64,000 nucleotides of DNA from an uncultured Candidatus Bathyarchaeia archaeon. GTDB taxonomy: Archaea > Thermoproteota > Bathyarchaeia > Bathyarchaeales > Bathycorpusculaceae. Position 1 is the first letter of the stretch, and every line of letters starts with the position of its first letter. The notes under the pieces were generated by a model, which had not been told where the DNA came from, made no database searches, and was given only the letters and a program-made list of their open reading frames with translations. Of the stretch, positions 29,731 to 58,762 are shown piece after piece. A program made the translations under genes and the position numbers. The DNA is taken from assembly GCA_964558305.1 (NCBI GenBank), contig CAZLCE010000006.1, positions 3,231 through 67,230 of the forward strand, given 5' to 3'.

Positions 29731-29734
29731 GAAA

Positions 29735-31624: not shown

Positions 31625-33072
31625 GGCGCCAAGGCTTTGGTTGCTGTTTTTAATATTTCTTCAAGTTGCTTCTTTACATTTTCATCTAAAGATGGAGGTT
31701 CGTGTTCTACTAGGATTTTCTTAACCTTCTCTCGTGCAACTTCCACTATACTTTTACTGCCCATTTTCTCCCATTGGGACCGTGAGGCTCTATTGGCGAG
31801 TTTGGGAAAGAAGTATTCATCGCGAAAGTGCTGAAGGGTATGTTTTTGTTGGAGAAAATTTGTCGACTCTCTAGCAACTTTTATTATGACGTCTACTGCA
31901 AGCGTTTCCTCATCAAAGTCTATGCCCCTGACTGCTCTGAATATCATTCCGAAGATTTCATCATCAATAACCAATTGCTCATAACTTACGGTAATGCCAC
32001 CTTCAATAGATCCAGCGCCCGACAGCGCATTGGCTCCCGAGAGTGCAGGTAAAAGACCGTTTAAGGCTTTTTCAAAAGCAGCCTGTTCGTCTAGCATTTT
32101 AGAATCGGTGTCTAGTCCGTAGACGTCTGAAGGCAAATCGTAGTATTTTGCAAGTTGTACGCATCCCACGGACATTATTGTCGCTTCAATTCCATCGCAA
32201 GCTTGTCCCGTCGACATGTCTAGAGGTATGCATCTTGGGGAGTATTCAACGGGATTGCCAGGGTTTAGAAGCTGTACGATTACTATTCCGGCTAACATTT
32301 CCACGTTTTGCTGAACTAAGGTTCCAGCTAATGTGACTGGGCTGGCTACTCCAGCAAGAGGGCAAGGTAACACAGCAATAGGTAAGTTATGCTTGGCTGC
32401 TCTGGCCATTATTCTTGTAACTTCATTTGAGAATTGTAGTGGGCTCGTTGGTGAAGCGCTGCAAGTTACTATTGGACGTTTTCTCAGCTCTTCCTCTCCA
32501 ACAAGGGTCTCAAGCATTTTAATTATGTATCGGTAACTGTTATCGTCGAACGGGGTTGCATCAAAATTTTTGCCAGTATTCCTAATTATCGCTTCAACAG
32601 CGTAAATATCTCTCAAACGCTCTGGCACATCACTTGGGTAGACAATCATGGTTTGACTGTGAATGTTTGGGAGAAAATCCACGATTTTCGTCAAGTTCTC
32701 AACATCTTTTCTAGTGGAAGGTCGCACTGCCCCTGAATCGATGTCAATCACATTGGCTGCACCGCCCACAGGATGAGTGTAGATTTTTCCGTCTCCAAGT
32801 TCAATGTTATGCTTTGATTCTCTAGCGTACAACGTTACATGTTTGGGTGCCTTTCTGACGCATTCCTCGACCAAACTGGGCGACATTTTAGCCCTTTTAT
32901 TGGTGAAGTCAACGTTCATTCCGTTATCAGCCAAAAACTTTAGAAAATCATTATCATGAATCAAGACGCCGACTTCTTCCAAGATTTTCAGGCTGGAAGC
33001 ATGTATGTTCTCGATTTGATTTCGAGTTAGAAATTCTAGCTTCAATTTTATCACTAACGTCTTTTTCCTCAT
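31621..33072 (-). CDS. MttB-superfamily substrate:corrinoid methyltransferase, non-pyrrolysine type (paralog 2)
   Basis: 483 aa. LTRNQIENIHASSLKILEEVGVLI..FLKFLADNGMNVD. Clearly homologous to paralog 1 but divergent. No in-frame TAG. Confidence 0.85.
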   Translation of the reverse strand: MRKKTLVIKLKLEFLTRNQIENIHASSLKILEEVGVLIHDNDFLKFLADNGMNVDFTNKRAKMSPSLVEECVRKAPKHVTLYARESKHNIELGDGKIYTHPVGGAANVIDIDSGAVRPSTRKDVENLTKIVDFLPNIHSQTMIVYPSDVPERLRDIYAVEAIIRNTGKNFDATPFDDNSYRYIIKMLETLVGEEELRKRPIVTCSASPTSPLQFSNEVTRIMARAAKHNLPIAVLPCPLAGVASPVTLAGTLVQQNVEMLAGIVIVQLLNPGNPVEYSPRCIPLDMSTGQACDGIEATIMSVGCVQLAKYYDLPSDVYGLDTDSKMLDEQAAFEKALNGLLPALSGANALSGAGSIEGGITVSYEQLVIDDEIFGMIFRAVRGIDFDEETLAVDVIIKVARESTNFLQQKHTLQHFRDEYFFPKLANRASRSQWEKMGSKSIVEVAREKVKKILVEHEPPSLDENVKKQLEEILKTATKALAP

Positions 33073-33107
33073 AGCCTAATGAATAGTGTAATCTGTTAGT
33101 TTAAGCT

Positions 33108-33120
33108 GAAAATATTTAAA
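33108..33120 (+). promoter_or_regulatory. Putative BRE/TATA element GAAAATATTTAAA in the MttB2 / corrinoid-protein divergent intergenic region
   Basis: Exact 13-mer match to 26567-26579. It lies between the divergent starts 33072 (-) and 33180 (+). Confidence 0.35.
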
Positions 33121-33143
33121 TTTTTTATGCGATCCCATGGAAT

Positions 33144-33153
33144 AAGTTTAAAT
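33144..33153 (+). promoter_or_regulatory. Putative TATA element AAGTTTAAAT upstream of the corrinoid-protein gene
   Basis: It ends 27 nt before GTG 33180. The same 10-mer occurs at 41734-41743 upstream of the SBP gene. Confidence 0.35.
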
Positions 33154-33179
33154 TTCATAACCAAGTAAGCAGAAGTTCG

Positions 33180-33842
33180 GTGAAGCATCTGATGAGTGCA
33201 TTAACTTCAACCTTAAAAGAGCAACTTCTGACTTTTGACGCGGACAAGTTTGTTGGAACTATAAAAAAACTAATCGACGAAGGCCTCAGTCCAATTGAAG
33301 TAGTTAACGCTTTAACTCAAGTGTTGAAAGAAATAGGGAAAAAATTTGAAAGTGGCGAACTGTTTCTGGTGCATCTTGTTGCGGCTGGTGATTTGGCTAG
33401 AAGAGCCACCACAGAAGTTTTGGAGCCGCTTCTAAAAAAGAGCAGTGGAGAAAGAAAGACGTTGGGGAAAGTTGTAATTGGGACAGTTGCAGGGGACATA
33501 CATGATATTGGCAAGAACATTGTTGCGATGCTGCTCTTCACAGCTGGTTTTGAAGTTTATGATCTGGGAAAAGATGTTTCAACCGAAGAGTTTGTAAAGA
33601 AAACAAAGGAAGTCAACCCTGACCTCGTTGCTATGTCTGCTCTTTTGACCACTACCCTTCCAGCTCAACGAGAAGTAGTCCAAGCCTTGACTAAATCTGG
33701 TCTGCGCGATAAAGTAAAGATTCTCGTTGGAGGAGCCCCAACCACCGGCGATTGGGCTAAAGAGATTGGCGCGGATGGCCACGGTGCAGACGCCATAGAC
33801 GCAGTAAAGGTTGCAAAAAAACTGTTGGGAGTAAGCGATTAA
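33180..33842 (+). CDS. Cobalamin-binding corrinoid protein (MtbC/MttC/MtgC-like)
   Basis: 220 aa. N-terminal helical cap domain, then the B12-binding signatures D-x-H-x-x-G (GDIHDIGKN), S-x-L (MSALLTT) and G-G (LVGGAP). The start may be ATG 33192. Confidence 0.9.
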   Translation: MKHLMSALTSTLKEQLLTFDADKFVGTIKKLIDEGLSPIEVVNALTQVLKEIGKKFESGELFLVHLVAAGDLARRATTEVLEPLLKKSSGERKTLGKVVIGTVAGDIHDIGKNIVAMLLFTAGFEVYDLGKDVSTEEFVKKTKEVNPDLVAMSALLTTTLPAQREVVQALTKSGLRDKVKILVGGAPTTGDWAKEIGADGHGADAIDAVKVAKKLLGVSD

Positions 33843-34756
33843 GCTATTTTAAAAATTGGGTGTGAAGGCGAAGGCATTTTACCTTTTTCTATCAGAAGCT
33901 GAGCAAAAGCTGCATTCACCATTGCGACGGCTGGAAAAACATAAGGTGCCCCCTCTATTGGTCCATAAAGTATGAAATCAGCTCCAGCAGCAAGCGTTAT
34001 GGTGTCGGCTACTGCTGCACATGGTTTTACAGCTTGCAAACCCATTTTGGTCTTTAATCCTCTCCATGTCCCTATAGCGTTGTGAGCGCCGCACCCCGTG
34101 GGGTATCCCAACTCATTTTTGAGGTCTAGAATCGCTTTGAACGCTGAGCCTAACGTTGGCACATCTAATACACACGCGTCTAAGAGTATCTTTTCAACTC
34201 CGCTCTGAGTGGCTAAGGGTAGAAGCTGCTTTATAGCTTCGACTCGACCCGCCGCGGTCATGTTTTTACTGTTATACGCCAATAACACAGCAGCCTTGAA
34301 CTTTGTTTCTTTGATTTTTTCAAATTCTACGGTTTTTGATTCGGGGTTAAGCGAATTGTAGATGCACTTCTCCTGAATTCCTACCTCCCTGGCGTAGTCT
34401 GCTGCAGCGATTCTGATTTCCGCTGAAGGAGCATCCAGAAGTATAGGCGTTTCTGTGACTGAAGTTACGAAATCTATCAATCGGCTTACCCATCTCTTAG
34501 AAGATAAAACAACATCCAACATGCAAGGCAATCCTGTCTTGTCAGAGAATTCCTCCTGAACTTTTATCAGCCTTTCAACTTCATTACGGTTATAATTGCC
34601 TGTTTCTTCGTTGAAATCTAAGTTTCTCTGTCTATAGTAAAAAATCGACCCTATAAGCACAGTGGGGTTGTCGCCACGCATCCCACCGATCGATACTTTT
34701 CCTACCGTGAATTTTTTCTGTTCAGATGAGGTTTGCTCCATCGTGATAAGCCTCAA
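33839..34756 (-). CDS. mtrH: MtrH-family methyltransferase (methyl-corrinoid:tetrahydromethanopterin/pterin methyltransferase)
   Basis: 305 aa. VGKVSIGGMRGDNPTVLIGSIFY and the overall length match Mtr subunit H homologs. No other mtr subunit genes are adjacent. Confidence 0.8.
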   Translation of the reverse strand: MRLITMEQTSSEQKKFTVGKVSIGGMRGDNPTVLIGSIFYYRQRNLDFNEETGNYNRNEVERLIKVQEEFSDKTGLPCMLDVVLSSKRWVSRLIDFVTSVTETPILLDAPSAEIRIAAADYAREVGIQEKCIYNSLNPESKTVEFEKIKETKFKAAVLLAYNSKNMTAAGRVEAIKQLLPLATQSGVEKILLDACVLDVPTLGSAFKAILDLKNELGYPTGCGAHNAIGTWRGLKTKMGLQAVKPCAAVADTITLAAGADFILYGPIEGAPYVFPAVAMVNAAFAQLLIEKGKMPSPSHPIFKIA

Positions 34757-34886
34757 TAGAGATTGGCTGTTTGGAAGTTAAACCTAACTTTTTCTTTTCG
34801 GATTTATTATGCTTTATCTTTTTTGTTTATGCTCTGGATCGATGGATCCGTTATGGAGAGTAAGTTTTAAGTGTAAAATGCCTTAA

Positions 34887-36053
34887 ATGGAGCTCGGGAT
34901 AAATGTGAAGATAATTGTGTTGGGTTGTGGCAACATAGGGTCAGTGGCTGCTAAAGACTTGGCAGAAAACTTGCCATCCGCAGAAATAGTCGTGAGCGAC
35001 GTTAATAAGAGCCGAGCCAAAGAGGTTGCGTCAAAAATTGGTAAAGGCAACGTTTCTTGGATCCAAACAGACGCATCCAATCATCATGAACTTGTAAACA
35101 CCATAAAAAAATTCGACTTAGCCGTGGGAAGCCTGCCCGGAATGATGGGTTATAAAGCGTGTAAAGCCTCTGTCTCGGCAAAGGTGGACATGGTAGACGT
35201 TTCCTACATGCCCGAAGATGTAATGACATTGAACAAAGCCGCTTTAAAGGCTAAAGTATGCATCGTCCCAGACTGCGGAATGAGTCCTGGATTAGGCAGC
35301 ATATTGGCTGGTCATGCAGTTAGTAAACTCGACCAAATTGAGAGTATCCACATGCTAAATGGTGGACTCCCAGAAAAGCCAATTCCACCATTAGGTTACG
35401 TGATAACATGGTCTGTGAAGGATCTCATAGATATGTACTCTAGGAAAGTGAGCATAGTCAAAGGGGGCAAGGTGATTCAAGTGGAAGCTATGAGTGGGCT
35501 TGAAGAAATAGATTTTCCAAGAGTCGGAAAACTGGAGGCTTTTTACACTGATGGACTGAGAACTATGCTTCATACAGTGAAGGGAGTCAAAGACATGTGG
35601 GAAAAATCGCTTAGATACCCAGGGCATGTTGAAAAAATAAAGTTGCTGAAGACGCTTGGATTCTTTGATGAAAGTCTTGTAAAAATTGGAAGCTTGAACG
35701 TTTCTCCACGAGAAGTAACTGCTAAACTGCTCGAAAGTAAGTTGAAACGATCTGATGTCCCCGACATTGTGGCTATGCGTATTGTGGTTAGCGGAACAAA
35801 AAAAGACGAACGGATCACGTATACTTATCATGCAATAGATCGTTACGACAAGAAACACAAAGTCACAGCCATGGCAAGAACCACAGCATATACAACTTCA
35901 ATCGTAGCTCAACTGCTGGCAAAGAAAATCATAAAAGAAAAGGGTGTTTTGCCACCCGAGAAAATTGGAATGAACGAAAAACTCTACAATAAGCTCATGG
36001 GTGAAATGAAAAAACGAAAAATCATAGTTAAAGAGAATAAGAAAATTCACTAA
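34887..36053 (+). CDS. Saccharopine-dehydrogenase-family NAD(P) oxidoreductase (substrate unknown)
   Basis: 388 aa with the Rossmann motif IIVLGCGNIGSVAAKDL. A TATA-like AAGTTTTAAG at 34862-34871 sits only about 20 nt before ATG 34887, so the GTG at 34908 (VKIIVLGCG) may be the real start. Confidence 0.8.
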   Translation: MELGINVKIIVLGCGNIGSVAAKDLAENLPSAEIVVSDVNKSRAKEVASKIGKGNVSWIQTDASNHHELVNTIKKFDLAVGSLPGMMGYKACKASVSAKVDMVDVSYMPEDVMTLNKAALKAKVCIVPDCGMSPGLGSILAGHAVSKLDQIESIHMLNGGLPEKPIPPLGYVITWSVKDLIDMYSRKVSIVKGGKVIQVEAMSGLEEIDFPRVGKLEAFYTDGLRTMLHTVKGVKDMWEKSLRYPGHVEKIKLLKTLGFFDESLVKIGSLNVSPREVTAKLLESKLKRSDVPDIVAMRIVVSGTKKDERITYTYHAIDRYDKKHKVTAMARTTAYTTSIVAQLLAKKIIKEKGVLPPEKIGMNEKLYNKLMGEMKKRKIIVKENKKIH

Positions 36054-36094
36054 AAACTCCAATTTTTCCATGAAGGAACTAATAAGGTGTGGTC

Positions 36095-36928
36095 ATGGAG
36101 AAACTGATCATCACAGTTGCTCCCACTGGTTCTGTTCCTCGTAAAAAAGACACGCCTTACCTGCCAATAAGTCCAGATGAAATTGCTGAAACAGCCTATC
36201 TTTGCGAGCAAGAGGGCGCATCAATTATTCACATTCACTGCCGTGATGCCAATGAGGAACCTACATCAGATTATGCTATTTTCAAGGAAACCGTGGACAA
36301 AGTTCGGAACCGTTCAAAGCTGATAATTATGACATCAACAAGTGGCATGGCAGGTAAAACAGATGAAGAACGAGCTCAGCCACTAAAGACAAAACCAGAG
36401 ATGGCAAGCCTCACGACGGGTTCACTAAACTTTGCTGGGCGCAAACCATCAGTTGTATATGTAAACACTTGGGAGACGATAACATTTCTCGCTAAGAGAA
36501 TGCTTGAGGCGGACATTAAGCCAGAGATTGAAGCCTTCGATGTAGGTTTCATTCAACAAGGCATAAAGCTCATTGAACAAGGGCTAATCAAACCGCCTGC
36601 CCATTTTCAGTTGGTTATGGGTGTTGACGGTGGTATTCCTGCCACTTCAGATAACTTGCTACACATGTGTCGTCAACTTCCGCTCAGCGCTACATTCTGT
36701 GTGGCTGGCATAGGTAGGTGGCAATTGACTATGACTGCATTGGCAATAATTATGGGTGGGCATGTGAGAGTTGGACTTGAAGACAATATTTTCTACGTTA
36801 AGGGTAAATTGGCTCCAAACGAAGAATTTGTGGCTAGAGTACGGCGCATTGCGAAGGAGCTTCAACGCGAAATAGCTACACCCGAAGAGGCGCGGAAGAT
36901 TTTAGGATTGCAAATAAAACCACGCTAA
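36095..36928 (+). CDS. BKACE-family enzyme (3-keto-5-aminohexanoate cleavage enzyme-like, DUF849)
   Basis: MEKLIITVAPTGS..ISPDEIAETAYLCEQEGASIIHIHCRD (Zn ligands H-x-H) is typical of beta-keto acid cleavage enzymes. The ATG at 36095 is preferred over the track's GTG at 36089 because AAGGTG lies 8 nt upstream. Confidence 0.85.
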   Translation: MEKLIITVAPTGSVPRKKDTPYLPISPDEIAETAYLCEQEGASIIHIHCRDANEEPTSDYAIFKETVDKVRNRSKLIIMTSTSGMAGKTDEERAQPLKTKPEMASLTTGSLNFAGRKPSVVYVNTWETITFLAKRMLEADIKPEIEAFDVGFIQQGIKLIEQGLIKPPAHFQLVMGVDGGIPATSDNLLHMCRQLPLSATFCVAGIGRWQLTMTALAIIMGGHVRVGLEDNIFYVKGKLAPNEEFVARVRRIAKELQREIATPEEARKILGLQIKPR

Positions 36929-36950: not shown

Positions 36951-37949
36951 CTACTTTATTCTGTGGCATGCCACGTAATGTTCTTCTCCCACTTCGATAA
37001 GTTCTGGCTCTTCCTTTCTGCAAACTTCCTCGGCATTTGGGCATCTAGTGTGAAATCTACAGCCAGGAGGCGGATTTACAGGGCTTGGAATTTCTCCTTT
37101 AATTGTTAGTTTTATGCGTCGTGATTTTGGATCAGGTACAGGCACAGCAGATATGAGCGCTTTAGTGTAAGAGTGCAAGGGTTCATAAACAATATCCTCA
37201 GATGTTCCCATTTCCATTATTTTACCGAGGTACATTATGGCTATTCTATGGCACATGTGACGAGCCGTGGCTAGGTCATGAGTTATGTATAAAATCGAAA
37301 CGTTGAATTTCTCCACTAACTCTAAAAAGAGATTCAGTATTTCCGCTCTTATTGACACATCGAGCATTGATATTGGCTCGTCTGCAACTACGAATTCGGG
37401 ATTAAGTATGAAGGTTCTTGCTACGACAACTCTCTGTCTTTGTCCTCCGCTCAGCTCGTGGGGGTATCTGAGTAAAAATTCGTTTGGAGGAACTACCTTC
37501 ACGTCTTCAAGAGTTTTTATCACTCTTTCTTCTACTTCCTTCTCGCTGCTCAAAACCTTTTGAATGCGTAAGCCTTCTGCAATGATGTCCATGACGGTCT
37601 TTCTTGGGTTTAGGGATTCGTAAGGGTCTTGGAAAACTGTCTGCATTTTGCGCCGCAGTTGTTTCTGTTTCATTTGCTTTCTAGTGAGTTTAGTGATATC
37701 TTCGCCCTTGAAAAAAACTTTCCCACTTGTTGGGTCAATTATTTTAAGGACCAATCTTCCAGTGGTTGTCTTTCCGCTGCCACTTTCTCCAGCTAAACCA
37801 AAAATTTCTCTTGTTTTTATATCAAAGCTTACATCATCTACGGCTCGAACGAACGATTCTTTCTTTGAAAGTAAAGCTTGGAAAAAGCCTCTTCTAACGG
37901 GAAACCACTTTTTTAAGTTTAACACTTCTACTACTTTATTTTCAGACAT
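36951..37949 (-). CDS. oppF: Peptide/nickel (Opp/Dpp-type) ABC transporter ATP-binding protein
   Basis: 332 aa. Walker A GESGSGKTT, signature LSGGQRQR, Walker B VVADEP, and a C-terminal oligopeptide-transporter domain with PPPGCRFHTRCP. Confidence 0.9.
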   Translation of the reverse strand: MSENKVVEVLNLKKWFPVRRGFFQALLSKKESFVRAVDDVSFDIKTREIFGLAGESGSGKTTTGRLVLKIIDPTSGKVFFKGEDITKLTRKQMKQKQLRRKMQTVFQDPYESLNPRKTVMDIIAEGLRIQKVLSSEKEVEERVIKTLEDVKVVPPNEFLLRYPHELSGGQRQRVVVARTFILNPEFVVADEPISMLDVSIRAEILNLFLELVEKFNVSILYITHDLATARHMCHRIAIMYLGKIMEMGTSEDIVYEPLHSYTKALISAVPVPDPKSRRIKLTIKGEIPSPVNPPPGCRFHTRCPNAEEVCRKEEPELIEVGEEHYVACHRIK

Positions 37950-37969: not shown

Positions 37970-38971
37970 TCAACTATTCCCATACAAGTGGCATGCGACA
38001 AGATGCTCTTTTTCCTTCATCTTCGTTACAGCTGGCTCCTGTTCCTTGCAGATGGTTTTTGCGTAGGTGCATCTGGGATGGAATCTGCAACCTTTAGGCG
38101 GATCTAAGAGGTCTGGTGGAGACCCGGGGATCGAGTTCATTCGTGTTCTGGTTGATTTTATGTTTGGAAAAGCTTGAATTAACCCTTGCGTATAGGGATG
38201 CAGCGGTTCTTCAAATAAGTCTGAAACATCTGCGTATTCAACTATTTTTCCTGCATACATTATAGCAACTTTATCGCAAGTGTCAGCTATAATCGATAGG
38301 TCATGTGTTATCAAGATCACAGCCAAGTTCAGTTTTTTTCTCAAATCTTCCATTATACTTAGTACCTGAGCCTGAACAATAACGTCTAGTGCTGTTCCCG
38401 GTTCATCGGCGATTAAGAGTTCTGGATTACATGCTAAAGCCATTGCTATAAGCCCGCGTTGCCTCATGCCGCCGCTTAGCTCGTGAGGATAACTTTTTAT
38501 CCGTTTTCTTTCCATTCCTACTAATTCCAATAGTTCTTCGGCTCTGCTCGCGGCTTCTCTTCTGTTAAGTTTTGATTCATGAGCCAAAATAGCTTCTACG
38601 ATCTGATCTCCAAGGCTGTAAAGCGGGTCAAGCGCATTCATAGCGCCTTGAAACACTAAAGATATTTTCTTCCACCGAATTTTCCTCATCTCTTTTTCGG
38701 AAATTCTTGCAATGTCAAGGTCTTTTAAGAGGATCTTGCCGTCGGTTATTTTGCCTCGAGATGGAAGAATTTTCATGATAGATAACGCTACAGTAGTTTT
38801 GCCGCAGCCAGATTCACCTGCCAAACCCATGGCTTGTCCTTCTTTAACCTGAAAGTCGACGCCATCCACTGCTTTGACGGGGCCTCTTTTCGTGAAATAG
38901 TATGTTCTTAGGTTTTCGACGTTTAGAAGAGACATGTTCAAAAGTTGCCTTCTTGTAATGTATGTAAACAC
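37970..38971 (-). CDS. oppD: Peptide/nickel (Opp/Dpp-type) ABC transporter ATP-binding protein
   Basis: 333 aa. GESGCGKTT, LSGGMRQR, LIADEP, PKGCRFHPRC. The start may be the internal M (MSLLNVENL) at 38935. Confidence 0.9.
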   Translation of the reverse strand: MFTYITRRQLLNMSLLNVENLRTYYFTKRGPVKAVDGVDFQVKEGQAMGLAGESGCGKTTVALSIMKILPSRGKITDGKILLKDLDIARISEKEMRKIRWKKISLVFQGAMNALDPLYSLGDQIVEAILAHESKLNRREAASRAEELLELVGMERKRIKSYPHELSGGMRQRGLIAMALACNPELLIADEPGTALDVIVQAQVLSIMEDLRKKLNLAVILITHDLSIIADTCDKVAIMYAGKIVEYADVSDLFEEPLHPYTQGLIQAFPNIKSTRTRMNSIPGSPPDLLDPPKGCRFHPRCTYAKTICKEQEPAVTKMKEKEHLVACHLYGNS

Positions 38972-39073: not shown

Positions 39074-40645
39074 TTAGATTCTTTCTCGAAGTTTTGGATT
39101 AAATACTTCATCCAAAGCATATCCGATGAAAATAAATGATATAGAAATGGCTGCTATGCATAAACCAGGCGGAAGGACCCACCACCATTTTTGAACGCCT
39201 CCGGGTGATATTAAAGCGTCATGAAGTATTCTTCCCCACGTCATGACTTCAAAGGGATAAAGTCCTAAAAAGCTTAGGTATGCCTCTGAATAAATTGCTG
39301 CGGGTGCTGACATGGCTAATGTAACATATACCAAATTCATAACATTTGGGGTTAGAACACTGAAGATGATGTAAAGCTCGCTTCCTCCAAGAATCCTTGA
39401 CGCATCGACAAAGGGTCTTTCCTTAAGGCTGAGAACCTGAGACCTCACTATTCTGGCGAACCCCATCCACCCGAGGAGAGAAATCATTACAATGATAATC
39501 CATAATGATGGCCCCGTGACTGCTACGAATACTAAGAGCAGGGGAAGCTCTGGTATTACAAGAAAGGTGTCAGTTATCCTCATCATTATTTCATCTATAA
39601 TTCCACCAAAATATCCTGAAACCATTCCGACGAACAAGCCTATAGTCGTGGATAGAAAGGCTCCGAGGAATCCCACAAGGAGGGATATTCTTGTTCCATA
39701 TAATAGCTGAGAAAATATGTCCCGTGCAAATTTGTCGGTTCCAAGTAGACCGAAGGTTTCGCCATAAAGTTTCAAGTCGAGGTCGTCTAAATAAACCGTG
39801 ACGTTCGATACATTTTCGCCAAACAGTGCTTCAACACCGAATGTGTAATTGGTCGGTTTAGAAAATACTTTTCTGTCTATATCCAAGATGTCAGAATCTA
39901 TAAGATTAAGATACCATGGTGGGGGGCCAGTCCTCATCGTTGGTTTGATCCATTTTCCAATGGGGTAGATTCCGCCTGTCGTTTTGAGGCCCTCAGCAGG
40001 GGACCATAGTGTTTTTGGTTCGCCCTCAGCCTGTTTGATGAAAACTGTAATGTTAAGGTCAGCTAGCTTAATAGTAATGTTTTGTGGGGCGTCAACCTTA
40101 ACATATATCTTTCCGACCCACTTGCTAGGCGGATTTGAATAGGGATAGGTGAATTCCTTAGCCAGAACCGCTTCTGCTTTCTCTTTTTGCGCAATTTCAT
40201 CTTGCCTTAAGCATATAGCAATGCAGCCTGGACCACTGCTGGGACTTCCCTCATTAGATAAATACTCTAGCGAAATGTATTGACTTGATGCGTTTGTTGT
40301 GAATCCCCACTGCTCCAACGAAACATTAGTCGAGAAGCTTGGGTCTTGAATAGGATTGACGTTTTCACTTAGATTTCCATAACCAGGCAGGTACCTAATC
40401 CATGAAGGGAGGGCGAGGGGACTAGCTGTTATTTCGGTAGGGATTGCTAAAGGGTCGTATGGCGTCAGCAAAGGCGCGGCAAGAGCTATTACAATGAATG
40501 CAGCAAGAATAGCGATGCCTAGTACTCCTCTTTTGCTTTGCATAATAATTCTTAAAACCTTGAGGAAATCTCTAAAGCGGGGTGCAATTTTTGATTTATA
40601 CGAAGCGGACATGGGTATCTCATCCATATTTAATTCGTGGATCAA
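39074..40645 (-). CDS. oppC: Opp/Dpp-type ABC transporter permease (OppC-like) with a large extracytoplasmic insertion after TM1
   Basis: 523 aa. It has TM1, then about 235 residues before the conserved LLGTDKFARDIFSQLLYGTRISL box, whereas I recall a much shorter segment in typical OppC/DppC. The start may be 40627 or 40612. Confidence 0.85.
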   Translation of the reverse strand: MIHELNMDEIPMSASYKSKIAPRFRDFLKVLRIIMQSKRGVLGIAILAAFIVIALAAPLLTPYDPLAIPTEITASPLALPSWIRYLPGYGNLSENVNPIQDPSFSTNVSLEQWGFTTNASSQYISLEYLSNEGSPSSGPGCIAICLRQDEIAQKEKAEAVLAKEFTYPYSNPPSKWVGKIYVKVDAPQNITIKLADLNITVFIKQAEGEPKTLWSPAEGLKTTGGIYPIGKWIKPTMRTGPPPWYLNLIDSDILDIDRKVFSKPTNYTFGVEALFGENVSNVTVYLDDLDLKLYGETFGLLGTDKFARDIFSQLLYGTRISLLVGFLGAFLSTTIGLFVGMVSGYFGGIIDEIMMRITDTFLVIPELPLLLVFVAVTGPSLWIIIVMISLLGWMGFARIVRSQVLSLKERPFVDASRILGGSELYIIFSVLTPNVMNLVYVTLAMSAPAAIYSEAYLSFLGLYPFEVMTWGRILHDALISPGGVQKWWWVLPPGLCIAAISISFIFIGYALDEVFNPKLRERI

Positions 40646-41624
40646 CAGCTCCGTAAATCATGTCAACTAAGAAATTGGCGGCAATGACGCAAAGACTCAC
40701 AATGTAAAAGATCGCTTGTAAAGCGGGGTAATCCCATTCTTCAATCGATGTCCAAATCCACATTCCTAATCCTGGATATGTGAAAATTGTTTCGGTGACT
40801 AACGCTCCTGAGAGGGTGAAGGCAAAGGCTATGGCTACTTGTGTTATTATTGGTAGCGACGCGTTTTTTAGTGCGTGTTTAAAAAGTATCTTAAAATTAC
40901 TTAGTCCTTTTGCTTTTAGGGTAATTAGATAGTCCTCACTTAAGACCTCCAGCATTGACGCCCTTGTCAAAAGAACATATCCTCCAATAGTGATTATTAC
41001 TAATGTCAAGGCTGGCAAGAAAAGATACTGCAAGCGAATCGCAAATTCTATTAGAAAATTATCGGGTTTGCCATGAATAGCCCACTCCGGGGGATATGAA
41101 TGACCTAATGGAAACCAGCCTAAGTTGTAGGAGAATATTAAGAGCAAAAGCATTCCTATCCAAAAAACCGGCAGTCCCTGCGTCACTACCGAAAACATTG
41201 AAAAAAAGGTGTCTGCAATTTTTCCTCTTTTGTAAGCCGCTACCACTCCAAGAATCAATCCCATTACAACAGCTATAACTTCTGCAGTGATGCACATTGA
41301 AAGGGTATTTGAAAGACGTGAAAACATTTCCTCGGATATAGCTTCTCCTGTGCGATAAGAATAACCAAACTGAAAAGTCAACAAATTCTGGAGATATTTC
41401 AAATATCTTACATATATCGGCTCCAATAGTCCAAAGCGTACTTTGAGTTCCTCAATTTGTCCAGGACGAAGTCTCTTTTCGGATGCTAACATTTCTACTG
41501 GGCTTCTAACCATAAAGATGGCGAAATTAATTGTAATTACAATAAAGACTAGGACGATGGAATAAACAGCTCTCTTAACAACATACCCTCGTAGACCCAT
41601 ACTTGCCCTCTCGCTTTTATTCAC
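40620..41624 (-). CDS. oppB: Opp/Dpp-type ABC transporter permease (OppB-like)
   Basis: 334 aa. YVVKRAVYSIVLVFIVITINF N-terminus, an EAA-like loop (LEVLSEDYLITLKAKGLS), and 6 TM segments. Confidence 0.9.
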   Translation of the reverse strand: MNKSERASMGLRGYVVKRAVYSIVLVFIVITINFAIFMVRSPVEMLASEKRLRPGQIEELKVRFGLLEPIYVRYLKYLQNLLTFQFGYSYRTGEAISEEMFSRLSNTLSMCITAEVIAVVMGLILGVVAAYKRGKIADTFFSMFSVVTQGLPVFWIGMLLLLIFSYNLGWFPLGHSYPPEWAIHGKPDNFLIEFAIRLQYLFLPALTLVIITIGGYVLLTRASMLEVLSEDYLITLKAKGLSNFKILFKHALKNASLPIITQVAIAFAFTLSGALVTETIFTYPGLGMWIWTSIEEWDYPALQAIFYIVSLCVIAANFLVDMIYGAVDPRIKYG

Positions 41625-41788: not shown

Positions 41789-44074
41789 ATGGACATAAAT
41801 TCTAAAGGCTTCAAAAAGATGATAATGACCTCAGCATTGCTACTTCTGATGCTAGATTTAACTTTCGTTTCAGGTCAAGCTGGTGGAGGTTCTGGAGGAT
41901 ATGAAAAGTGGGGGCCAAGAACTAATTACTTACAGTGTATAATCTATACGAATTATGAGACTGAGGCTACGGCTTTTCGTAATGGGCTTATTGACATTAT
42001 GGATTGGCCTTTAGACTATGATACATATATGTCTATAAAAGATGATCCTGCCTTCATTAAAGAAACACTTACAATGTATGATTGCTATGACATCGATATA
42101 AACTGTTTAAGATGGCCAACAAGCGATTACCGCTTTAGACAAGCTATCGCTTATTTAATTGACTACTCAACGTTTTATACTAATATTTTGAGGGCTTTCG
42201 CTGGCGAGTTGATGGACAATATTATATGGTCGCAATGGGTCAAGTGGTATAATCCGGGTGCCCCGAAGTATTGGTATGATAATGCTACAGCCTTATCAAT
42301 ACTTGCTGAAGCAGGTTACCAAAATTGGGACGGCGATCCACAACTGGAATGGAAAGCGCCGAATAATACAATTTACCAATTGCCCAACTTGGAATTTTAT
42401 GCAAGAGAGGATGATCCTCTTCGAGCGGCTTTAGGAACGATGTTAAACGCACAGTTAAACGCTATAGGCATTCCCACAACTTTCTCAGTAGCATCACGTA
42501 ACATTTGTTGGAACCACGCATACAAATTTTATACCTATCACTTATATACAGCGGGAATGGGTCCATTCCCAGACCCGCAATTCTTGTATGACTACTATCA
42601 CAGTAAATATGCTACGCCAGACATCGCTTGGTGCATGAACAATGTGTTCTTCATGAACGATACTTACGATTATTGGGTTGAACAACTCAAGTTTGCAGCT
42701 AATGACACTACGGCAGTACAAGCATGCAAAAACGCTCAAGAAATATTTATGGACCAAATACCCCTAATCCCAGTTTACCATTCAGCCGGCAAAAAAGCTT
42801 ACAAAGCTACATATGGGCATCACACTGGTGAGGAGGCATACTGGGATATGCCTTGGAACGGCGTTGTAAACTCGATAATACCAACAGTAGATTCTGGCAT
42901 TAACGATTATTGGACCCTCTTGAATGCGCATCCTGGAAGCGTTCAGAAAGGCGGTGTATTACGATACGGATGGCTATCCGACGCAGATCATGTAAATCCC
43001 GTGACGGTATACTCTATCTGGGACTCTTACCTGCTGGAAGAGCTTTACAGCACAATGATTATGCGCGATCCTTTCACGGGAGCCAGAGTTCCATGGCTTG
43101 CAAAAGATTGGACTGTTGGAACATGGAATTATGGAGGAAAAAATGCAACAAAATTAACGATGCGCCTTCATGAAAACCTCAAATGGTCTGATGGTACACC
43201 ACTCAATTCAACTGACGTAGCATTCACCATGAAATACATGTATGATACTTCTTCACCTTCCTACTACCCCTACATGGAGATGATTGACGGCATAAATACA
43301 ACAACTCCACATATTGAAACGCCAGATGCCACCACAGTTGTCATCTACTATACTGTTGAATCAGTATGGGCTCTCGAATGGGCGGGAGATACACCAATAA
43401 TACCCAAGCATGTATGGGAAACAGTACCACCCAAACAATGCGACCAGAAAGGCGAATTTACAACGACAGGCAACCTAACATGCTCAGGACCATACCTAAT
43501 CGACAGTTACGTGAGAGGCGAATGGTGGCTCCTAAGAGCAAACCCCTACTTCTTTAGATATTCACCCCCACATGATCTATCCCTAACAGACATGGGAAGC
43601 CAAAAAACAATCGTTTGCCAAGGATACGGCTTAAACGTAACCTTGACCTGCGCAAATATCGGATACTTCACAGAATCAGCAACAATAGAAGTCTTTGCAA
43701 ACGGAACCTCTGCCGGCACTATGTCGGGAATAACAGTGACAACTGCAACACCATGTACAATAACGTTCACTTGGGACACTTCTGGCTTTGCTAAGGGCAA
43801 CTACAACATAAGCGCCCTTATTTGGCCTGTTCTAGGCGAAATAGACACTGCCGACAACAATTTCACTGATGTTTGGATTTCTGTCGCTATAGTTGGTGAT
43901 GTTAACGCTGATAAGAAGGTTGATATGGTAGACCTTTGGGAAGTTGCTAGGCATTTTGGCATTGACTATCCGGACCCAAGATACGTGCCCAACTTTGACA
44001 TAGACAACAACGGCAAAACAGACATGATAGACCTCTGGACAACAGCCAAAGAATACGGCAAAATAGACCCATAA
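41789..44074 (+). CDS. oppA: Family-5 (peptide/nickel) ABC substrate-binding protein fused to C-terminal CARDB-like and dockerin-like modules
   Basis: 761 aa. Signal/anchor MIMTSALLLLMLDLTFVSG. SBP_bac_5-like core about 550 aa. CARDB-like segment (NVTLTCANIGYF..FTWDTSGFAKGNYNISA..GEIDTADNNF). Two dockerin-type Ca-binding loops (DVNADKKVDMVD, DIDNNGKTDMID). Confidence 0.85.
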   Translation: MDINSKGFKKMIMTSALLLLMLDLTFVSGQAGGGSGGYEKWGPRTNYLQCIIYTNYETEATAFRNGLIDIMDWPLDYDTYMSIKDDPAFIKETLTMYDCYDIDINCLRWPTSDYRFRQAIAYLIDYSTFYTNILRAFAGELMDNIIWSQWVKWYNPGAPKYWYDNATALSILAEAGYQNWDGDPQLEWKAPNNTIYQLPNLEFYAREDDPLRAALGTMLNAQLNAIGIPTTFSVASRNICWNHAYKFYTYHLYTAGMGPFPDPQFLYDYYHSKYATPDIAWCMNNVFFMNDTYDYWVEQLKFAANDTTAVQACKNAQEIFMDQIPLIPVYHSAGKKAYKATYGHHTGEEAYWDMPWNGVVNSIIPTVDSGINDYWTLLNAHPGSVQKGGVLRYGWLSDADHVNPVTVYSIWDSYLLEELYSTMIMRDPFTGARVPWLAKDWTVGTWNYGGKNATKLTMRLHENLKWSDGTPLNSTDVAFTMKYMYDTSSPSYYPYMEMIDGINTTTPHIETPDATTVVIYYTVESVWALEWAGDTPIIPKHVWETVPPKQCDQKGEFTTTGNLTCSGPYLIDSYVRGEWWLLRANPYFFRYSPPHDLSLTDMGSQKTIVCQGYGLNVTLTCANIGYFTESATIEVFANGTSAGTMSGITVTTATPCTITFTWDTSGFAKGNYNISALIWPVLGEIDTADNNFTDVWISVAIVGDVNADKKVDMVDLWEVARHFGIDYPDPRYVPNFDIDNNGKTDMIDLWTTAKEYGKIDP

Positions 44075-46027: not shown

Positions 46028-46501
46028 TTAACGTGGTTTTTTGTGAGTTATAGTTTTTTCTTCTTCTAGCTCTTTGACACGTGTCTCGATGAACTCGGTG
46101 ACTTTCTCTTGGCAGTATTCCCTTTCTTCATTCTGCTTTCTCAGTTGTTCTCTGATTGTTTTTAGGATCATGTCCACGTTAAAGGGCTTCATTATGTAGG
46201 CATCTGCACCCTTATTTAGGGCTTCAATTGCGTTTTGCAATGAAGGATAGCCGGTGACCATTATTTTTCGCATTTTAGGCGTTGTGTCTCTTATTTTTGT
46301 TAGAAGTTTTGTTCCGTCCATGTCTGGAAGCCGAATGTCTATTAATGCTACATTGTATAATCTGATTTTGCTTTTTTCGATTGCTTGTTTTCCATTTTTC
46401 GCAGTGTCAACATCAAATCCTTCTTCTTTCAGTATTGTTGCAAGAACTTTTCTTATGCTTTCGTCGTCGTCGACAACAAGGATTCGGGCACGTTCACCCA
46501 T
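46028..46501 (-). CDS. CheY-like response regulator, receiver domain only
   Basis: 157 aa. ILVVDDDE, phospho-acceptor LIDIRLPDMDG, and VTGY..K motifs. No output domain. Confidence 0.9.
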   Translation of the reverse strand: MGERARILVVDDDESIRKVLATILKEEGFDVDTAKNGKQAIEKSKIRLYNVALIDIRLPDMDGTKLLTKIRDTTPKMRKIMVTGYPSLQNAIEALNKGADAYIMKPFNVDMILKTIREQLRKQNEEREYCQEKVTEFIETRVKELEEEKTITHKKPR

Positions 46502-48531
46502 ACTTTTTCACCTCCTTCTTTTACTTTAGGTCTTATGGGGATGACTAGCGTGAATGTGGTTCCTTTGCCAACGGTGCTTTCAACGGAGATGTTGCCTCCG
46601 TGGGCTTCTATGATGCGTTTGCAGATGGGCAGGCCTAACCCCATTCCCTTTGCTTTGGTTGTGAAAAATGGTGTCCAGATTTTCTCCATAACTTCTTTTG
46701 TCATACCTATTCCTGTATCAGCAAATGTGATTTCTACATTGCCGTCAGATTCTTTGCTCGTAATTGTAAGTTTGCCACCATTGGGCATCGCGTCAACTGC
46801 GTTTTTAATTAAGTTGGCAAATACTCTTTTCATCTTTTCAAAGTCTATCTTTACTTTAGGTTCGTCTTGTGTTGAGTCCAGCACTTGAACATAATCTGGA
46901 ATCTCAACCATGGATAGTGTTTCTTTTACAATTAATTTTGGGGTAGTTTCAGTCAACTCTAGCCGTATTTCTTTCGAGTATTCCATTAGATCCTTTATGA
47001 TTTCGTTTGCGTGTTCAACGTCATTTTCAATAAGCTCAAGCATTTCTTTGGTTTTCTCATCCATTTTTGGGCTCAGTTTCGTTTTTAGGTAATATGTGGC
47101 TCCTGAAATGCCTGTTAATGGGTTTCGCAGGTCATGGCCTACCATTGCTGCAACTTGTCCGATGGCTGCAAGTCTTTCAGATTTGATAAGTTGTTCTTGT
47201 GCTACTCTTAACTGTCTAGTTCTTTTCTCAACCATTTCCTCTAGGTGCTGAGAATACTCCTCCAGTTTCTTCTCCAACTTCTTCCTTTCTGTAACGTCTC
47301 TCGCAACGACTAATATACCAACGAGTTTATCATCTATTTTTATAATTGAGGATGAACATTCTAAATAAATCTCTTGGCCTTTCTTGTTTGTAATGCGTAA
47401 GCTGGTATAGCCTTCTTTGCCGCTAATGATTCTTGCAAAATTACTCAGAAGCTTTGGTATGTCTCTGAGAGAAAATACCCCCGCCTTTATGAAATGCTTT
47501 CCTAATAGTTCTTCTTTTGATCCACCAAACACCTGCACGGCTTTTTCATTAACATCAATGATTCTTCCAGACCTATCCAAATATATTAGGCTGTCATTTG
47601 CACTCTCAAAAATTTTCCTAAATCTCTCCTCGCTCTCTTGAAGCGCTTCTTCCATCCTCTTGCGCTCAGTGACATCCATAACAATGGCTAGAGCGCCAGT
47701 AAATTGCCCGTCTTTATTCCCAAGAGGTGATGCTGACACTTGAACAATGCGAGGCTTGCCATCCTTGCCATACATGACAAGTTCGTATCGGCCTAATTTT
47801 CCTCTTTTTCTGTTCTCTGTCTGCCTTCTGATTTCCTTGAAGTTTTTTTCGTCGACAAGTTTTCGCAAGTTAACGTGTATAAGTTCATTTTCCTTGTAAC
47901 CCAACATGTCAGCAAATGCTTTGTTTACAAAAGTCAGATTATCATTTGAATCCACTATTGTTATTCCTTCCATAGCTGTCTTCAGCAACATCTCAAGTTT
48001 TCTGTTAGTTTCTTCCAATATTTTTTCCATCGACACACGTTCTGTAATGTCGCGTACAATTCCAAGGGTTCCAACAGTTTTTCCATTAATAATTAACGGT
48101 CTAGAAGTTACTTCAGTTAAAACTATTTTGTTGGTAGCTGTTTTTAGCTCCAATTCAAGTCTAATTTCCTTTCCTCTAATCACGTCCAGAAAACCCTTAA
48201 CTGCCTTGGGCAAGCTTTTGAGGGGAATAATTTTTCTGAAAGATTTTCCAATGAAATGTTCGCGTTTAAAACCTGTCAGTTCTTCTGCTTTGCGGTTAAC
48301 AGCCAAAAAGTTTCCATGCATGTCAAGAACGTAAATCGCATCGCTGGCATTTTCAAATAAACATTTGAAAGCGTCAGCAAAAGATCTGTTTAAAGAAAAA
48401 AACTCGACTAACCTTTCATCGGCATTTTCCAAAATTAAGTCAGCTCCCTTCTGTTCTCTAATGTGAGTCCTCTTGAACCATGATTGAGCAATGATGATTC
48501 CTCTAAAGCATATTCCAAGAAACACTTTCAA
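46453..48531 (-). CDS. Multi-PAS sensor histidine kinase
   Basis: 692 aa with about four PAS repeats (each ending ..DITERK/V..). HisKA H-box VGHDLRNPL. HATPase N-box NLIKNAVDA and G-boxes DTGIGM and GMGLGL. No clear TM segments. Its 3' end overlaps the response-regulator start by 49 nt. Confidence 0.9.
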   Translation of the reverse strand: MKVFLGICFRGIIIAQSWFKRTHIREQKGADLILENADERLVEFFSLNRSFADAFKCLFENASDAIYVLDMHGNFLAVNRKAEELTGFKREHFIGKSFRKIIPLKSLPKAVKGFLDVIRGKEIRLELELKTATNKIVLTEVTSRPLIINGKTVGTLGIVRDITERVSMEKILEETNRKLEMLLKTAMEGITIVDSNDNLTFVNKAFADMLGYKENELIHVNLRKLVDEKNFKEIRRQTENRKRGKLGRYELVMYGKDGKPRIVQVSASPLGNKDGQFTGALAIVMDVTERKRMEEALQESEERFRKIFESANDSLIYLDRSGRIIDVNEKAVQVFGGSKEELLGKHFIKAGVFSLRDIPKLLSNFARIISGKEGYTSLRITNKKGQEIYLECSSSIIKIDDKLVGILVVARDVTERKKLEKKLEEYSQHLEEMVEKRTRQLRVAQEQLIKSERLAAIGQVAAMVGHDLRNPLTGISGATYYLKTKLSPKMDEKTKEMLELIENDVEHANEIIKDLMEYSKEIRLELTETTPKLIVKETLSMVEIPDYVQVLDSTQDEPKVKIDFEKMKRVFANLIKNAVDAMPNGGKLTITSKESDGNVEITFADTGIGMTKEVMEKIWTPFFTTKAKGMGLGLPICKRIIEAHGGNISVESTVGKGTTFTLVIPIRPKVKEGGEKVWVNVPESLLSTTTKA

Positions 48532-53867: not shown

Positions 53868-54392
53868 TTATGGCCAGTATTCTAGTTGAACTTTGAAGTT
53901 GTCTAAGATCGAATCTACGATAGCCTTCACTTCAATTGTTAATCGTGTGCAATTGCTCGGAGCCAGAGAGCCATAATAGTAACTGTTGGCATTTTTCAGA
54001 TCCACTGTGTTAAGGTATGTCCAAGTTCCTTCGACGGTGTAGTTTTCGTAAATGTGTAGCTTTGCTGTTTCAAAATACGTTACTGTAAGGGGATCTGTCA
54101 CAGTTATGTTATAGTAATATGTACTGGCTGTGTCGTTATTCTTTAGGAACAGAGCTTCTGTAAAATTCACCGCAGTATTGTTTTCCACATTTAAGCTCAC
54201 AGTTGCTGTGCCACCAACTATTGTAGCATCTGGAACGTCTGCACCTTTTACCCACATAAGTTTGATACCGCCAACAGTGATTGTTCCCTCAATGTACATA
54301 TACCTATATACTGTTGCACTCGCTGTTGCTATAAGTAAGGACGTTATCAGCAATGTTATTAGTTTTAGGCTTTTCTTATAATTTATCTTCAT
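53868..54392 (-). CDS. N-terminally anchored/secreted beta-rich protein with six N-x-S/T sequons, function unknown
   Basis: 174 aa. Hydrophobic N-terminus LKLITLLITSLLIATASA. Sequons NNT, NFT, NDT, NIT, NYT, NCT. It starts 1 nt after the upstream membrane-protein gene ends. Confidence 0.55.
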   Translation of the reverse strand: MKINYKKSLKLITLLITSLLIATASATVYRYMYIEGTITVGGIKLMWVKGADVPDATIVGGTATVSLNVENNTAVNFTEALFLKNNDTASTYYYNITVTDPLTVTYFETAKLHIYENYTVEGTWTYLNTVDLKNANSYYYGSLAPSNCTRLTIEVKAIVDSILDNFKVQLEYWP

Positions 54393-54393
54393 C

Positions 54394-55098
54394 TTATTGT
54401 TTCACCTCCTTCTTCCTTCTTTTTCTTTCTTTCAGCGTATCTATCCATATTTTTGCGAGTACGTAGACGCTTACGCCTAAGATTATGACGCAGGCTATTG
54501 CAAGACCTATGGCTGAAACTAAGAAAGTTGCCTCTCCCCACGACGGCTTAAGTAAGGCGTATATGCTTGCGCCTGTTATTGCTGTGCCTGCGCCGAGGGC
54601 TATGTACCACCATTTTGGCTTGAAGAACACGTAAGTGCCAAACCCCACCACTATAGTGTCGAAGGTTACTATGCCAATGAAGGTGGCTTCCCAAGACATC
54701 TGCGGTGTCATCACAAGCGGATGGACAGCAACCTCTGCATAGTTGGATAGGAAAAATACAGCCAAAGTTAGGGCTGGAAAAGTCACGGTGAACATGAAAA
54801 CCTTTGCGTAATTGAGCAGCTTCTTCATTATGCCAAGATACATGTTGACTGCAATTATGTTTGCCAAGGCTACGACTAGGTATAGGAGGCTGTACCAGAA
54901 GCGCATGTACTCGCCAAAGAATACGATGAACTCTTTGCTTACGAGTAACTGTCCAAAGCCCGCCAAAGCCGCTAATTGGTATATGTATGGTAGTTGCCAT
55001 GGAAAATGCCTATCCAACAAACATGTCAGCAGACTTATAGCTAGGAAAAGGTCTATGCCTAACAGTGCAAAGAACTCTGGTTGTAGTGGGGAAGGCAT
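54394..55098 (-). CDS. Polytopic membrane protein (about 7 TM) with a basic C-terminal tail, function unknown
   Basis: 234 aa, hydrophobic throughout, with C-terminus KERKRRKKEVKQ. Confidence 0.6.
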   Translation of the reverse strand: MPSPLQPEFFALLGIDLFLAISLLTCLLDRHFPWQLPYIYQLAALAGFGQLLVSKEFIVFFGEYMRFWYSLLYLVVALANIIAVNMYLGIMKKLLNYAKVFMFTVTFPALTLAVFFLSNYAEVAVHPLVMTPQMSWEATFIGIVTFDTIVVGFGTYVFFKPKWWYIALGAGTAITGASIYALLKPSWGEATFLVSAIGLAIACVIILGVSVYVLAKIWIDTLKERKRRKKEVKQ

Positions 55099-58586: not shown

Positions 58587-58762
58587 TCGTCCTTTTATGT
58601 TATGTCTAAATGTATTCTTTTGTATTTTGGGTTTTAACGGTTTGCCTTTGAAAAAGGGTTGAATGTTTTGGTGTTGCTATGATTAACTTATATGGTCGTA
58701 TAGAAGATTTATCCGTAAGATTTATGTTTTGATTGAACTATTTTAGATCAGGAGAAAGAAAA

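Follow-up and report, generated by a model that had tools for sequence, protein, structure and literature searches.

How does an archaeon keep the receptor of an ATP-binding cassette (ABC) importer at its surface when the receptor ends in a dockerin instead of a membrane anchor? The question is raised by a gene at 41789-44074 (+) in a 64,000-nucleotide stretch of contig CAZLCE010000006.1 from an uncultured Candidatus Bathyarchaeia archaeon (the whole stretch is called the window below). Its open reading frame is intact and encodes a protein of 761 residues. The original prediction, made from the DNA letters, described a family-5 substrate-binding protein (SBP) core that is followed by a CARDB-like beta-domain and a type I dockerin. 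Pfam searches, alignments and an AlphaFold2 (AF2) model identify the product as a predicted secreted SBP of the OppA/NikA family carrying a dockerin behind a CARDB-like spacer; the family assignment of the core stands, but its segments are in circularly permuted order, which the prediction missed. This previously unnoticed circular permutation is the most interesting element of the locus. The protein is almost certainly the permuted SBP of the adjacent importer.

The core belongs to the family by profile, since SBP_bac_5 (PF00496) matches the 761-residue protein with an E value of 2.4e-45 and a score of 155.7 bits, where 32.4 would suffice, and the AF2 model of the whole protein has a mean predicted local distance difference test score (pLDDT) of 90.5 and a predicted template modeling score (pTM) of 0.80. 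The core is circularly permuted, with canonical residues ~234-570 first and ~30-233 after them. Its first piece (residues ~38-345; 41900-42823, on the same strand as all features of this gene) maps by Pfam, PDB and blastp onto the last two thirds of a canonical family-5 SBP (~234-569), and its second piece (residues 385-590; 42941-43558), with the motif NPYFFR at its end, aligns with the N-terminal third (~36-233). Between them, in the gap between the high-scoring segment pairs (HSPs), lies a junction of residues ~346-384 (42824-42940) that leads from the ancestral C terminus to the ancestral N terminus and is modelled with a pLDDT of 82-95. Pfam matches the profile in two out-of-order stretches, with profile positions 141-364 found at residues 41-273, and the N-terminal part of the NCBIfam OppA and Opp4A models is matched by residues ~400-605. 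Against PDB entry 5u4o, residues 385-588 of the query align with residues 40-223 and residues 103-329 with residues 287-489. Against the canonical SBP P0049, blastp pairs query residues 384-589 with 36-233 and query residues 34-361 with 234-569, and the two HSPs abut exactly. When P0053, P0061 and P0100 are doubled in tandem, a single collinear alignment covers query residues 40-590 or 108-591. Exactly abutting HSPs and collinearity with doubled SBPs are the usual mark of circular permutation. The lobe segments do not follow the canonical N-to-C order, and collinearity is reached only once the canonical SBP is doubled.

Structure comparison agrees with this order. AF2 predicts one compact fold with high confidence across both core pieces and the junction, and the top Foldseek matches of the model are AppA, NikZ, NikA, OppA and 5u4o (E ~1e-15), indicating that the predicted fold is bilobed and NikA/OppA-like. 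Each of these alignments covers 290-360 of ~500 target residues in one contiguous part, with target-normalised TM-scores of 0.4-0.5, and no end-to-end match or match of more than ~360 columns occurs among the 50 best PDB matches. Partial alignments of this kind are expected, because the aligner is sequential and the query is a permutant. Two partial SBPs fused in tandem were also considered as an explanation, which is ruled out by the exactly abutting HSPs, the collinearity with doubled SBPs and the single confident fold.

How far does the permuted form extend? About 40 close homologues are collinear with the query, and those that are named come from Bathyarchaeia/Bathyarchaeota; all of them start with a shared 'YEKWGPRVDYLQLIIY' motif right after the signal peptide. 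With the core as the query, phmmer was run exhaustively against 1.84 billion cluster representatives and returned 6028 matches at E<=1e-3, of which 116 reach E<=1e-30. The segment order of the 150 best representatives was judged against five canonical references. Permuted order could be demonstrated in 136 of them, none of the 150 has both halves in canonical order, and the remaining 14 were matched by one half only, being fragments or canonical SBPs. Tail-less permuted members of 550-570 residues are found in Bacillota and Synergistaceae. Their presence alongside the archaeal members indicates that the permuted form is old and spans both prokaryote domains. All permuted members have generic names in the source databases ('ABC transporter substrate-binding protein'), and a literature search found no paper on a permuted OppA-class SBP. 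This cross-domain OppA/NikA-type family appears to be undescribed and has no solved structure, and its members are annotated throughout as ordinary SBPs.

The core is followed by an all-beta, Ig-like spacer (residues 597-700; 43577-43888), which AF2 models as a beta-sandwich of ~100 residues and eight strands with a pLDDT of about 85-95. The spacer has no Pfam match to CARDB (PF07705) even at E<1, either in the whole protein or in the tail searched alone, but the orthologous spacers of P0005, P0007, P0008 and P0015 pass the CARDB cut-off of 22.7 with 25.9-37.2 bits. Because its own profile match is absent, the spacer can be called CARDB-like solely by orthology and its beta-sandwich model, and the earlier assignment holds in this restricted sense. 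Next comes a type I dockerin (residues 703-754; 43895-44050). Dockerin_1 (PF00404) matches residues 703-749 above its cut-off of 22.9, both in the whole protein (32.6 bits) and when the tail is searched by itself (34.3 bits). The two calcium loops of 12 residues each, DVNADKKVDMVD at residues 704-715 (43898-43933) and DIDNNGKTDMID at residues 737-748 (43997-44032), both read D or N at positions 1, 3, 5, 9 and 12, and AF2 places a helix after each of them (713-721 and 746-754). The profile match and the modelled helices bear out the two-loop dockerin layout that had been read from the sequence. The chain does end close behind the second helix, as had been noted, at a distance of 7 residues and not 9. 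In other members of the family, the C-terminal 65-90 residues at the dockerin position hold two-repeat tails with the acidic 'DFDVDEDDLWHFCGAFIDYYK' twice or 'FDGVVDAFDYALWKACYDG' twice (P0021, P0022, P0026, P0029 and P0004, P0027, P0037). Pfam does not recognize a dockerin in these tails, which may be divergent dockerin-like docking modules.

Does the dockerin take the place of an anchor? The orthologues speak to this question, since in every family member the core closes with NPYFFR, beyond which the sequences part at once. The tails beyond this point include CARDB plus dockerin, a bare dockerin of 65-68 residues, another beta domain plus a transmembrane helix, and a short linker plus a transmembrane helix and RRRK. 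In P0003 (1187 residues), five tandem CARDB repeats precede a transmembrane helix and RKRRK, an arrangement that would fit a stalk or spacer role for the repeats, setting the distance between receptor and anchor. The exchange takes place at one and the same syntenic locus, where P0013 has a transmembrane helix and a basic tail, P0016 a bare dockerin, and P0002 and the window gene CARDB plus dockerin. Independent orthologues from other samples (P0002, P0005-P0008 and P0015) share the layout of core, CARDB and dockerin. Among the 136 permuted representatives, 43 have a dockerin tail by Pfam at E<=0.01 (71 by a looser motif) and 27 have a C-terminal transmembrane helix, which makes the dockerin the commonest recognisable tail of the permuted family. 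The transmembrane-anchored members P0010-P0014, P0030, P0031 and P0041 have kept the N-terminal hydrophobic segment, an argument for its being a cleaved signal peptide and for the C-terminal module being the anchor. On this evidence, which is good but indirect and goes beyond what the DNA letters could show, we consider it somewhat more probable than otherwise that the dockerin tethers the SBP.

A second protein of the window carries the same module. The gene at 58733-61474 (+) encodes a secreted protein of 913 residues in which Pfam finds a zinc phospholipase C (PLC)-like domain (Zn_dep_PLPC, 30.1 bits), Kelch repeats and a dockerin (Dockerin_1, 31.2 bits); the chain runs from a signal peptide through the PLC-like domain and a Kelch propeller to a CARDB-like end and the dockerin. 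The dockerins of the SBP and the PLC/Kelch protein are 100% identical, the carriers are unrelated, and both genes lie within 64 kb, so that different secreted proteins of this genome (n=2) share closely similar dockerins. The similarity extends to the DNA, where a direct repeat of 300 nucleotides at 43763-44062 (+) recurs at 61163-61462 (+) with 93% identity, the repeat holding the shared cassette of CARDB end and dockerin. The last 66 codons and 12 nucleotides past the stop codon are DNA-identical in the two genes, and the sequences diverge beyond. In orthologous SBPs elsewhere, the core is 59-77% identical and the dockerin 29-43%. Hence, the dockerins track the genome and not the carrier protein, which fits a common receptor, and the PLC/Kelch protein would be an extracellular enzyme that shares the docking site of the SBP.

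What might the dockerin bind? A classical cohesin is the partner with a little less than an even chance. Several observations weigh against the reading of the SBP as a receptor with a cohesin-bound tether. No cohesin match was found by Pfam or NCBIfam among the scanned predicted secreted and membrane proteins of the 64-kb window. The predicted replacement of a membrane anchor by a dockerin is backed by the same-locus exchange after NPYFFR but lacks a partner among these proteins. The complete lack of synonymous differences between the two dockerin copies points to recent gene conversion, and such identity is by itself no proof of selection for a shared partner. Furthermore, the canonical-order SBPs P0358 and P0387 are likewise anchored by a C-terminal transmembrane helix, meaning that permutation is not required for tethering. 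With the CARDB-dockerin cassette as the query, 8 short matches were obtained, none of them with a cohesin, and a literature search gave nothing specific on a cohesin-dockerin system in Bathyarchaeota.

Among the alternatives, the one that survives best holds that the module, as a pair of EF hands, attaches to glycans of the surface, to the S-layer or to a second dockerin, or does no more than stabilise the protein, with the receptor retained in the 'pseudo-periplasm' beneath the S-layer. The want of a cohesin among the scanned proteins favors it, as does a review that calls the function of non-cellulosomal dockerins unknown (PMC5244752), and the 'DFDVDEDDLWHFCGAFIDYYK' and 'FDGVVDAFDYALWKACYDG' tails of the homologues suggest that the position tolerates varied small modules. 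However, both calcium loops and their helices have the canonical form, the Pfam match clears its cut-off, and archaeal dockerins are reported as specific cohesin binders in work cited in the dockerin section of PMC9012536. The homogenisation of dockerins within a genome fits a specific protein partner, and the alternation with a transmembrane helix at one locus indicates anchoring whatever the ligand. We regard a non-cohesin ligand as unlikely, though it is the most serious of the competing explanations.

The original prediction had offered, as a long shot, a cohesin-like fold for the anchored, beta-rich protein of 174 residues at 53868-54392 (-). The AF2 model of this protein (pLDDT 88.5) instead matches pilus and cannula subunits, with no cohesin in the top 50 structure matches, so the candidate was rejected. 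The closest structures, subunits of archaeal donor-strand filaments, are the bundling pilus AbpA of Pyrobaculum (7ueg, E 3.7e-6), the cannula protein CanA of Pyrodictium and the thread subunit of Sulfolobus (7pnb). The protein has 164 homologues, none with a Pfam domain, and every named one is from Bathyarchaeia. By its modelled fold, it is probably a subunit of an undescribed surface filament of Bathyarchaeia. Its gene adjoins that of a protein of 234 residues with five transmembrane segments (54394-55098, -), for which no family was matched.

Returning to the dockerin as the probable tether, is the N terminus of the SBP free of the membrane? The protein starts with a Sec-type signal peptide (residues 1-31; 41789-41881), whose cleavage site is deduced from the sequence and which is followed by a GGGSGG linker; the peptide has an n-region KGFKK, an h-region at 11-27 and a c-region SGQA. 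This is the sole hydrophobic segment of the 761-residue protein (residues 10-30). A hydrophobic-segment scan finds no C-terminal transmembrane helix, and the protein has no lipobox, because there is no cysteine near the hydrophobic segment; on both counts the original description was right. We infer that the N-terminal segment is a cleaved Sec signal peptide. If it were instead an uncleaved signal anchor, it would itself be the tether, and the dockerin would recruit other proteins to the receptor. The long h-region of about 17-20 residues, the deduced nature of the cleavage and the low-confidence helix at 5-23 in the AF2 model (with disorder at 21-36) leave some room for this. Yet the small-residue c-region and the flexible linker behind the h-region speak for cleavage, and the members with a C-terminal transmembrane helix (P0014, P0030, P0031 and P0041) have a like N terminus and would be anchored twice, which would be unusual. 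The OppA-class SBPs of archaeal sugar and peptide transporters, as in Sulfolobus and Pyrococcus, are described as combining a cleavable signal peptide with a C-terminal transmembrane anchor, a pattern that also speaks against an uncleaved segment. An uncleaved anchor is accordingly a poor prospect, with a lower chance than a non-cohesin ligand. The window also encodes an archaeal signal peptidase I at 13975-14676 (-), whose TIGR02228 score of 53.3 bits exceeds the cut-off of 51.85. Judging from its assignment, this enzyme would process the SBP, the PLC/Kelch protein and the 174-residue filament subunit.

The transporter genes lie next to the SBP gene, in divergent orientation. They encode an OppB-type permease (40620-41624, -; BPD_transp_1, E 4.5e-44), an OppC-type permease (39074-40645, -; OppC_N and BPD_transp_1) and two ATPases with ABC_tran and oligo_HPY domains, of OppD type (37970-38971, -) and OppF type (36951-37949, -). 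The divergent arrangement of SBP and OppBCDF is kept around P0002, P0013 and P0016 on contigs L001, L003 and L004 from other metagenomes. By this gene order, the SBP is the predicted receptor of the adjacent OppBCDF-type importer. The OppC-type permease has an extracellular insert of ~230 residues between its first and second transmembrane helices (residues ~67-297), rich in N-glycosylation sequons, which has no Pfam match at E<=10 and no PDB match; the solved DppC and OppC chains cover residues 297-520 only. Long OppC proteins of 511-527 residues are present in all three orthologous loci, that of the transmembrane-anchored SBP (L003) included. The insert may offer the permuted receptor a place to dock.

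Could the dockerin dock on its own transporter, for example on this OppC insert, so that the receptor would be permanently attached to the permease? The conservation of a large extracellular insert in the transporter lineage is the point in favor. However, the long OppC also accompanies the transmembrane-anchored SBP of L003, showing no co-variation between insert and dockerin; an identical dockerin sits on the unrelated PLC/Kelch protein; and the insert lacks a match to a cohesin or any other Pfam family at E<=10. We consider docking on the permease very unlikely. Least credible of all is an assembly artefact, in which the contig was mis-joined through a repeat of ~200 identical nucleotides and the dockerin belongs to the 913-residue gene only: the tract of ~210 nucleotides that is DNA-identical between the two genes would permit it, but the CARDB-like regions upstream of the tract are similar yet distinct, each copy has its own downstream sequence, and independent orthologues show the same architecture of core, CARDB and dockerin, on the strength of which an assembly chimera was rejected.

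What the importer takes up is hinted at by its neighbors. A cluster at 28285-36928 adjoining the Opp operon encodes two MttB-family methyltransferases, a RACo corrinoid activase, a corrinoid protein, MtrH, a saccharopine-dehydrogenase-like enzyme and a BKACE protein. Most of its genes recur on three other contigs, including those for the MttB-family, corrinoid, MtrH, saccharopine-dehydrogenase-like and BKACE proteins. The MttB, corrinoid and BKACE neighbors suggest that the importer feeds the catabolism of a methylated amine or of a carnitine- or lysine-derived compound, and not of peptides, which gives a hint that the substrate could be a methylated amine or amino-acid derivative. A few kilobases downstream of the SBP gene, Pfam identifies a multi-PAS histidine kinase (46453-48531, -), beside which an open reading frame at 46028-46501 (-) appears response-regulator-like by sequence alone. 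The kinase and its neighbor are absent at the matching position in L003, the contig of the transmembrane-anchored orthologue.

Is such a tether new? In ANME archaea, dockerin-bearing SBPs of the NikA/OppA type are described as 'common' in the dockerin/cohesin section of Chadwick et al. (2022, PLoS Biol; PMC9012536), where TroA SBPs with dockerins are mentioned too and attachment to the outer cell layer is suggested. With that precedent and 43-71 of 136 permuted representatives dockerin-tailed, this kind of tether is not a new one, and calling it unusual, as the original prediction did, was an overstatement. As presented in that section, the ANME proteins likewise join an archaeal Opp/Nik-class SBP to a dockerin, read as surface attachment by cohesin and dockerin, and the evidence is a genomic observation there as here. 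They differ from the window protein in lineage (here Bathyarchaeia) and in coming from genomes with many cohesin proteins, whereas none was found among the scanned proteins of the window; one ANME genome has 80 cohesin and 149 dockerin domain entries, the function of which is given as unknown in a review (PMC5244752). Neither a permuted core nor an exchange of transmembrane helix for dockerin among orthologues is mentioned in the dockerin/cohesin section of PMC9012536.

The permutation, too, has a precedent. MglB-2 of Treponema pallidum (Tp0684) is a permuted glucose-binding SBP that founded 'Cluster Bc' (Brautigam et al. 2016, PMC4990184), and its authors speculated on a link between permutation and tethering (PMC4990184). 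It is the one natural precedent found for a permuted ABC binding protein, and it has the concept alone in common with the window SBP, to which it shows no family-level homology. Both are natural permutants, but MglB-2 belongs to SBP cluster B with its type I sugar-binding fold, is cut at a different point and has a bacterial lipoprotein anchor. All sequence and structure matches of the window SBP are to cluster C, which places it outside Cluster Bc. With the canonical cluster C SBPs (OppA, DppA, NikA and AppA; PDB 1xoc, 1uiv and 5u4o) it shares the fold family and the OppBCDF partners, but differs from them in being permuted, with new termini at about canonical 233/234. The transmembrane-anchored members of the family are like the Sulfolobus/Pyrococcus-type SBPs, whereas the window SBP has CARDB plus dockerin at the position of the transmembrane helix and a permuted core.

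The clostridial cellulosome offers a further comparison. As here, a duplicated module of 22 residues with calcium loop and helix sits at the C terminus, and near-identical dockerins within a genome are carried by unrelated proteins. The differences from the cellulosome are that the dockerins are borne here by the receptor of a transporter and by a PLC/Kelch protein instead of by glycoside hydrolases, that the host is an archaeon, and that neither a scaffoldin nor a cohesin was found among the scanned proteins of the window. As far as the literature shows, what appears to be new is a dockerin-bearing SBP in Bathyarchaeia, a large permuted family of cluster C and the exchange of transmembrane helix and dockerin at the same locus.

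How might the parts work together? The protein would be exported through Sec and then lose its N-terminal signal peptide, to give a mature receptor of the two-lobed OppA/NikA type with permuted chain order and a junction of ~40 residues across the old termini. Directly behind NPYFFR, it would carry an exchangeable anchoring cassette, represented here by a putative CARDB-type spacer and a calcium-binding dockerin and in orthologues by a transmembrane helix with a basic tail, sometimes with spacers. The dockerin most likely stands in for the transmembrane anchor: without a covalent bond, it would fit into a receptor module, presumably of the cohesin type, that is part of a protein anchored at the surface, and the same receptor module would hold the PLC/Kelch protein through the identical dockerin. 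More boldly, Bathyarchaeia and other archaea with the permuted family might build a surface 'uptake assembly', based on cohesin and dockerin, in which a common receptor module would hold both permuted receptors and enzymes that act outside the cell, the PLC/Kelch protein among them, and so couple breakdown to import; the permutation and the large OppC ectodomain would then have adapted together so that a receptor docked by its C terminus can reach the permease. This wider picture is speculative, and we hold it to be improbable, somewhat more so than a non-cohesin ligand.

Lipid and transmembrane anchors are the only known means by which archaeal ABC receptors are retained at the cell surface. 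An exchangeable, non-covalent dockerin tether would, if true, be a third mode of anchoring, one that has so far been a genomic remark for ANME archaea. One and the same transporter is paired with transmembrane-anchored or dockerin-tailed receptors depending on the genome, which provides a natural experiment and makes the tether idea directly testable. The permuted family itself bears on the classification of SBPs, on substrate prediction from structure and on the engineering of biosensors, a field that makes use of artificial SBP permutations. Bathyarchaeia are among the most abundant archaea of sediments, and hence the way in which they capture their substrates is ecologically relevant.

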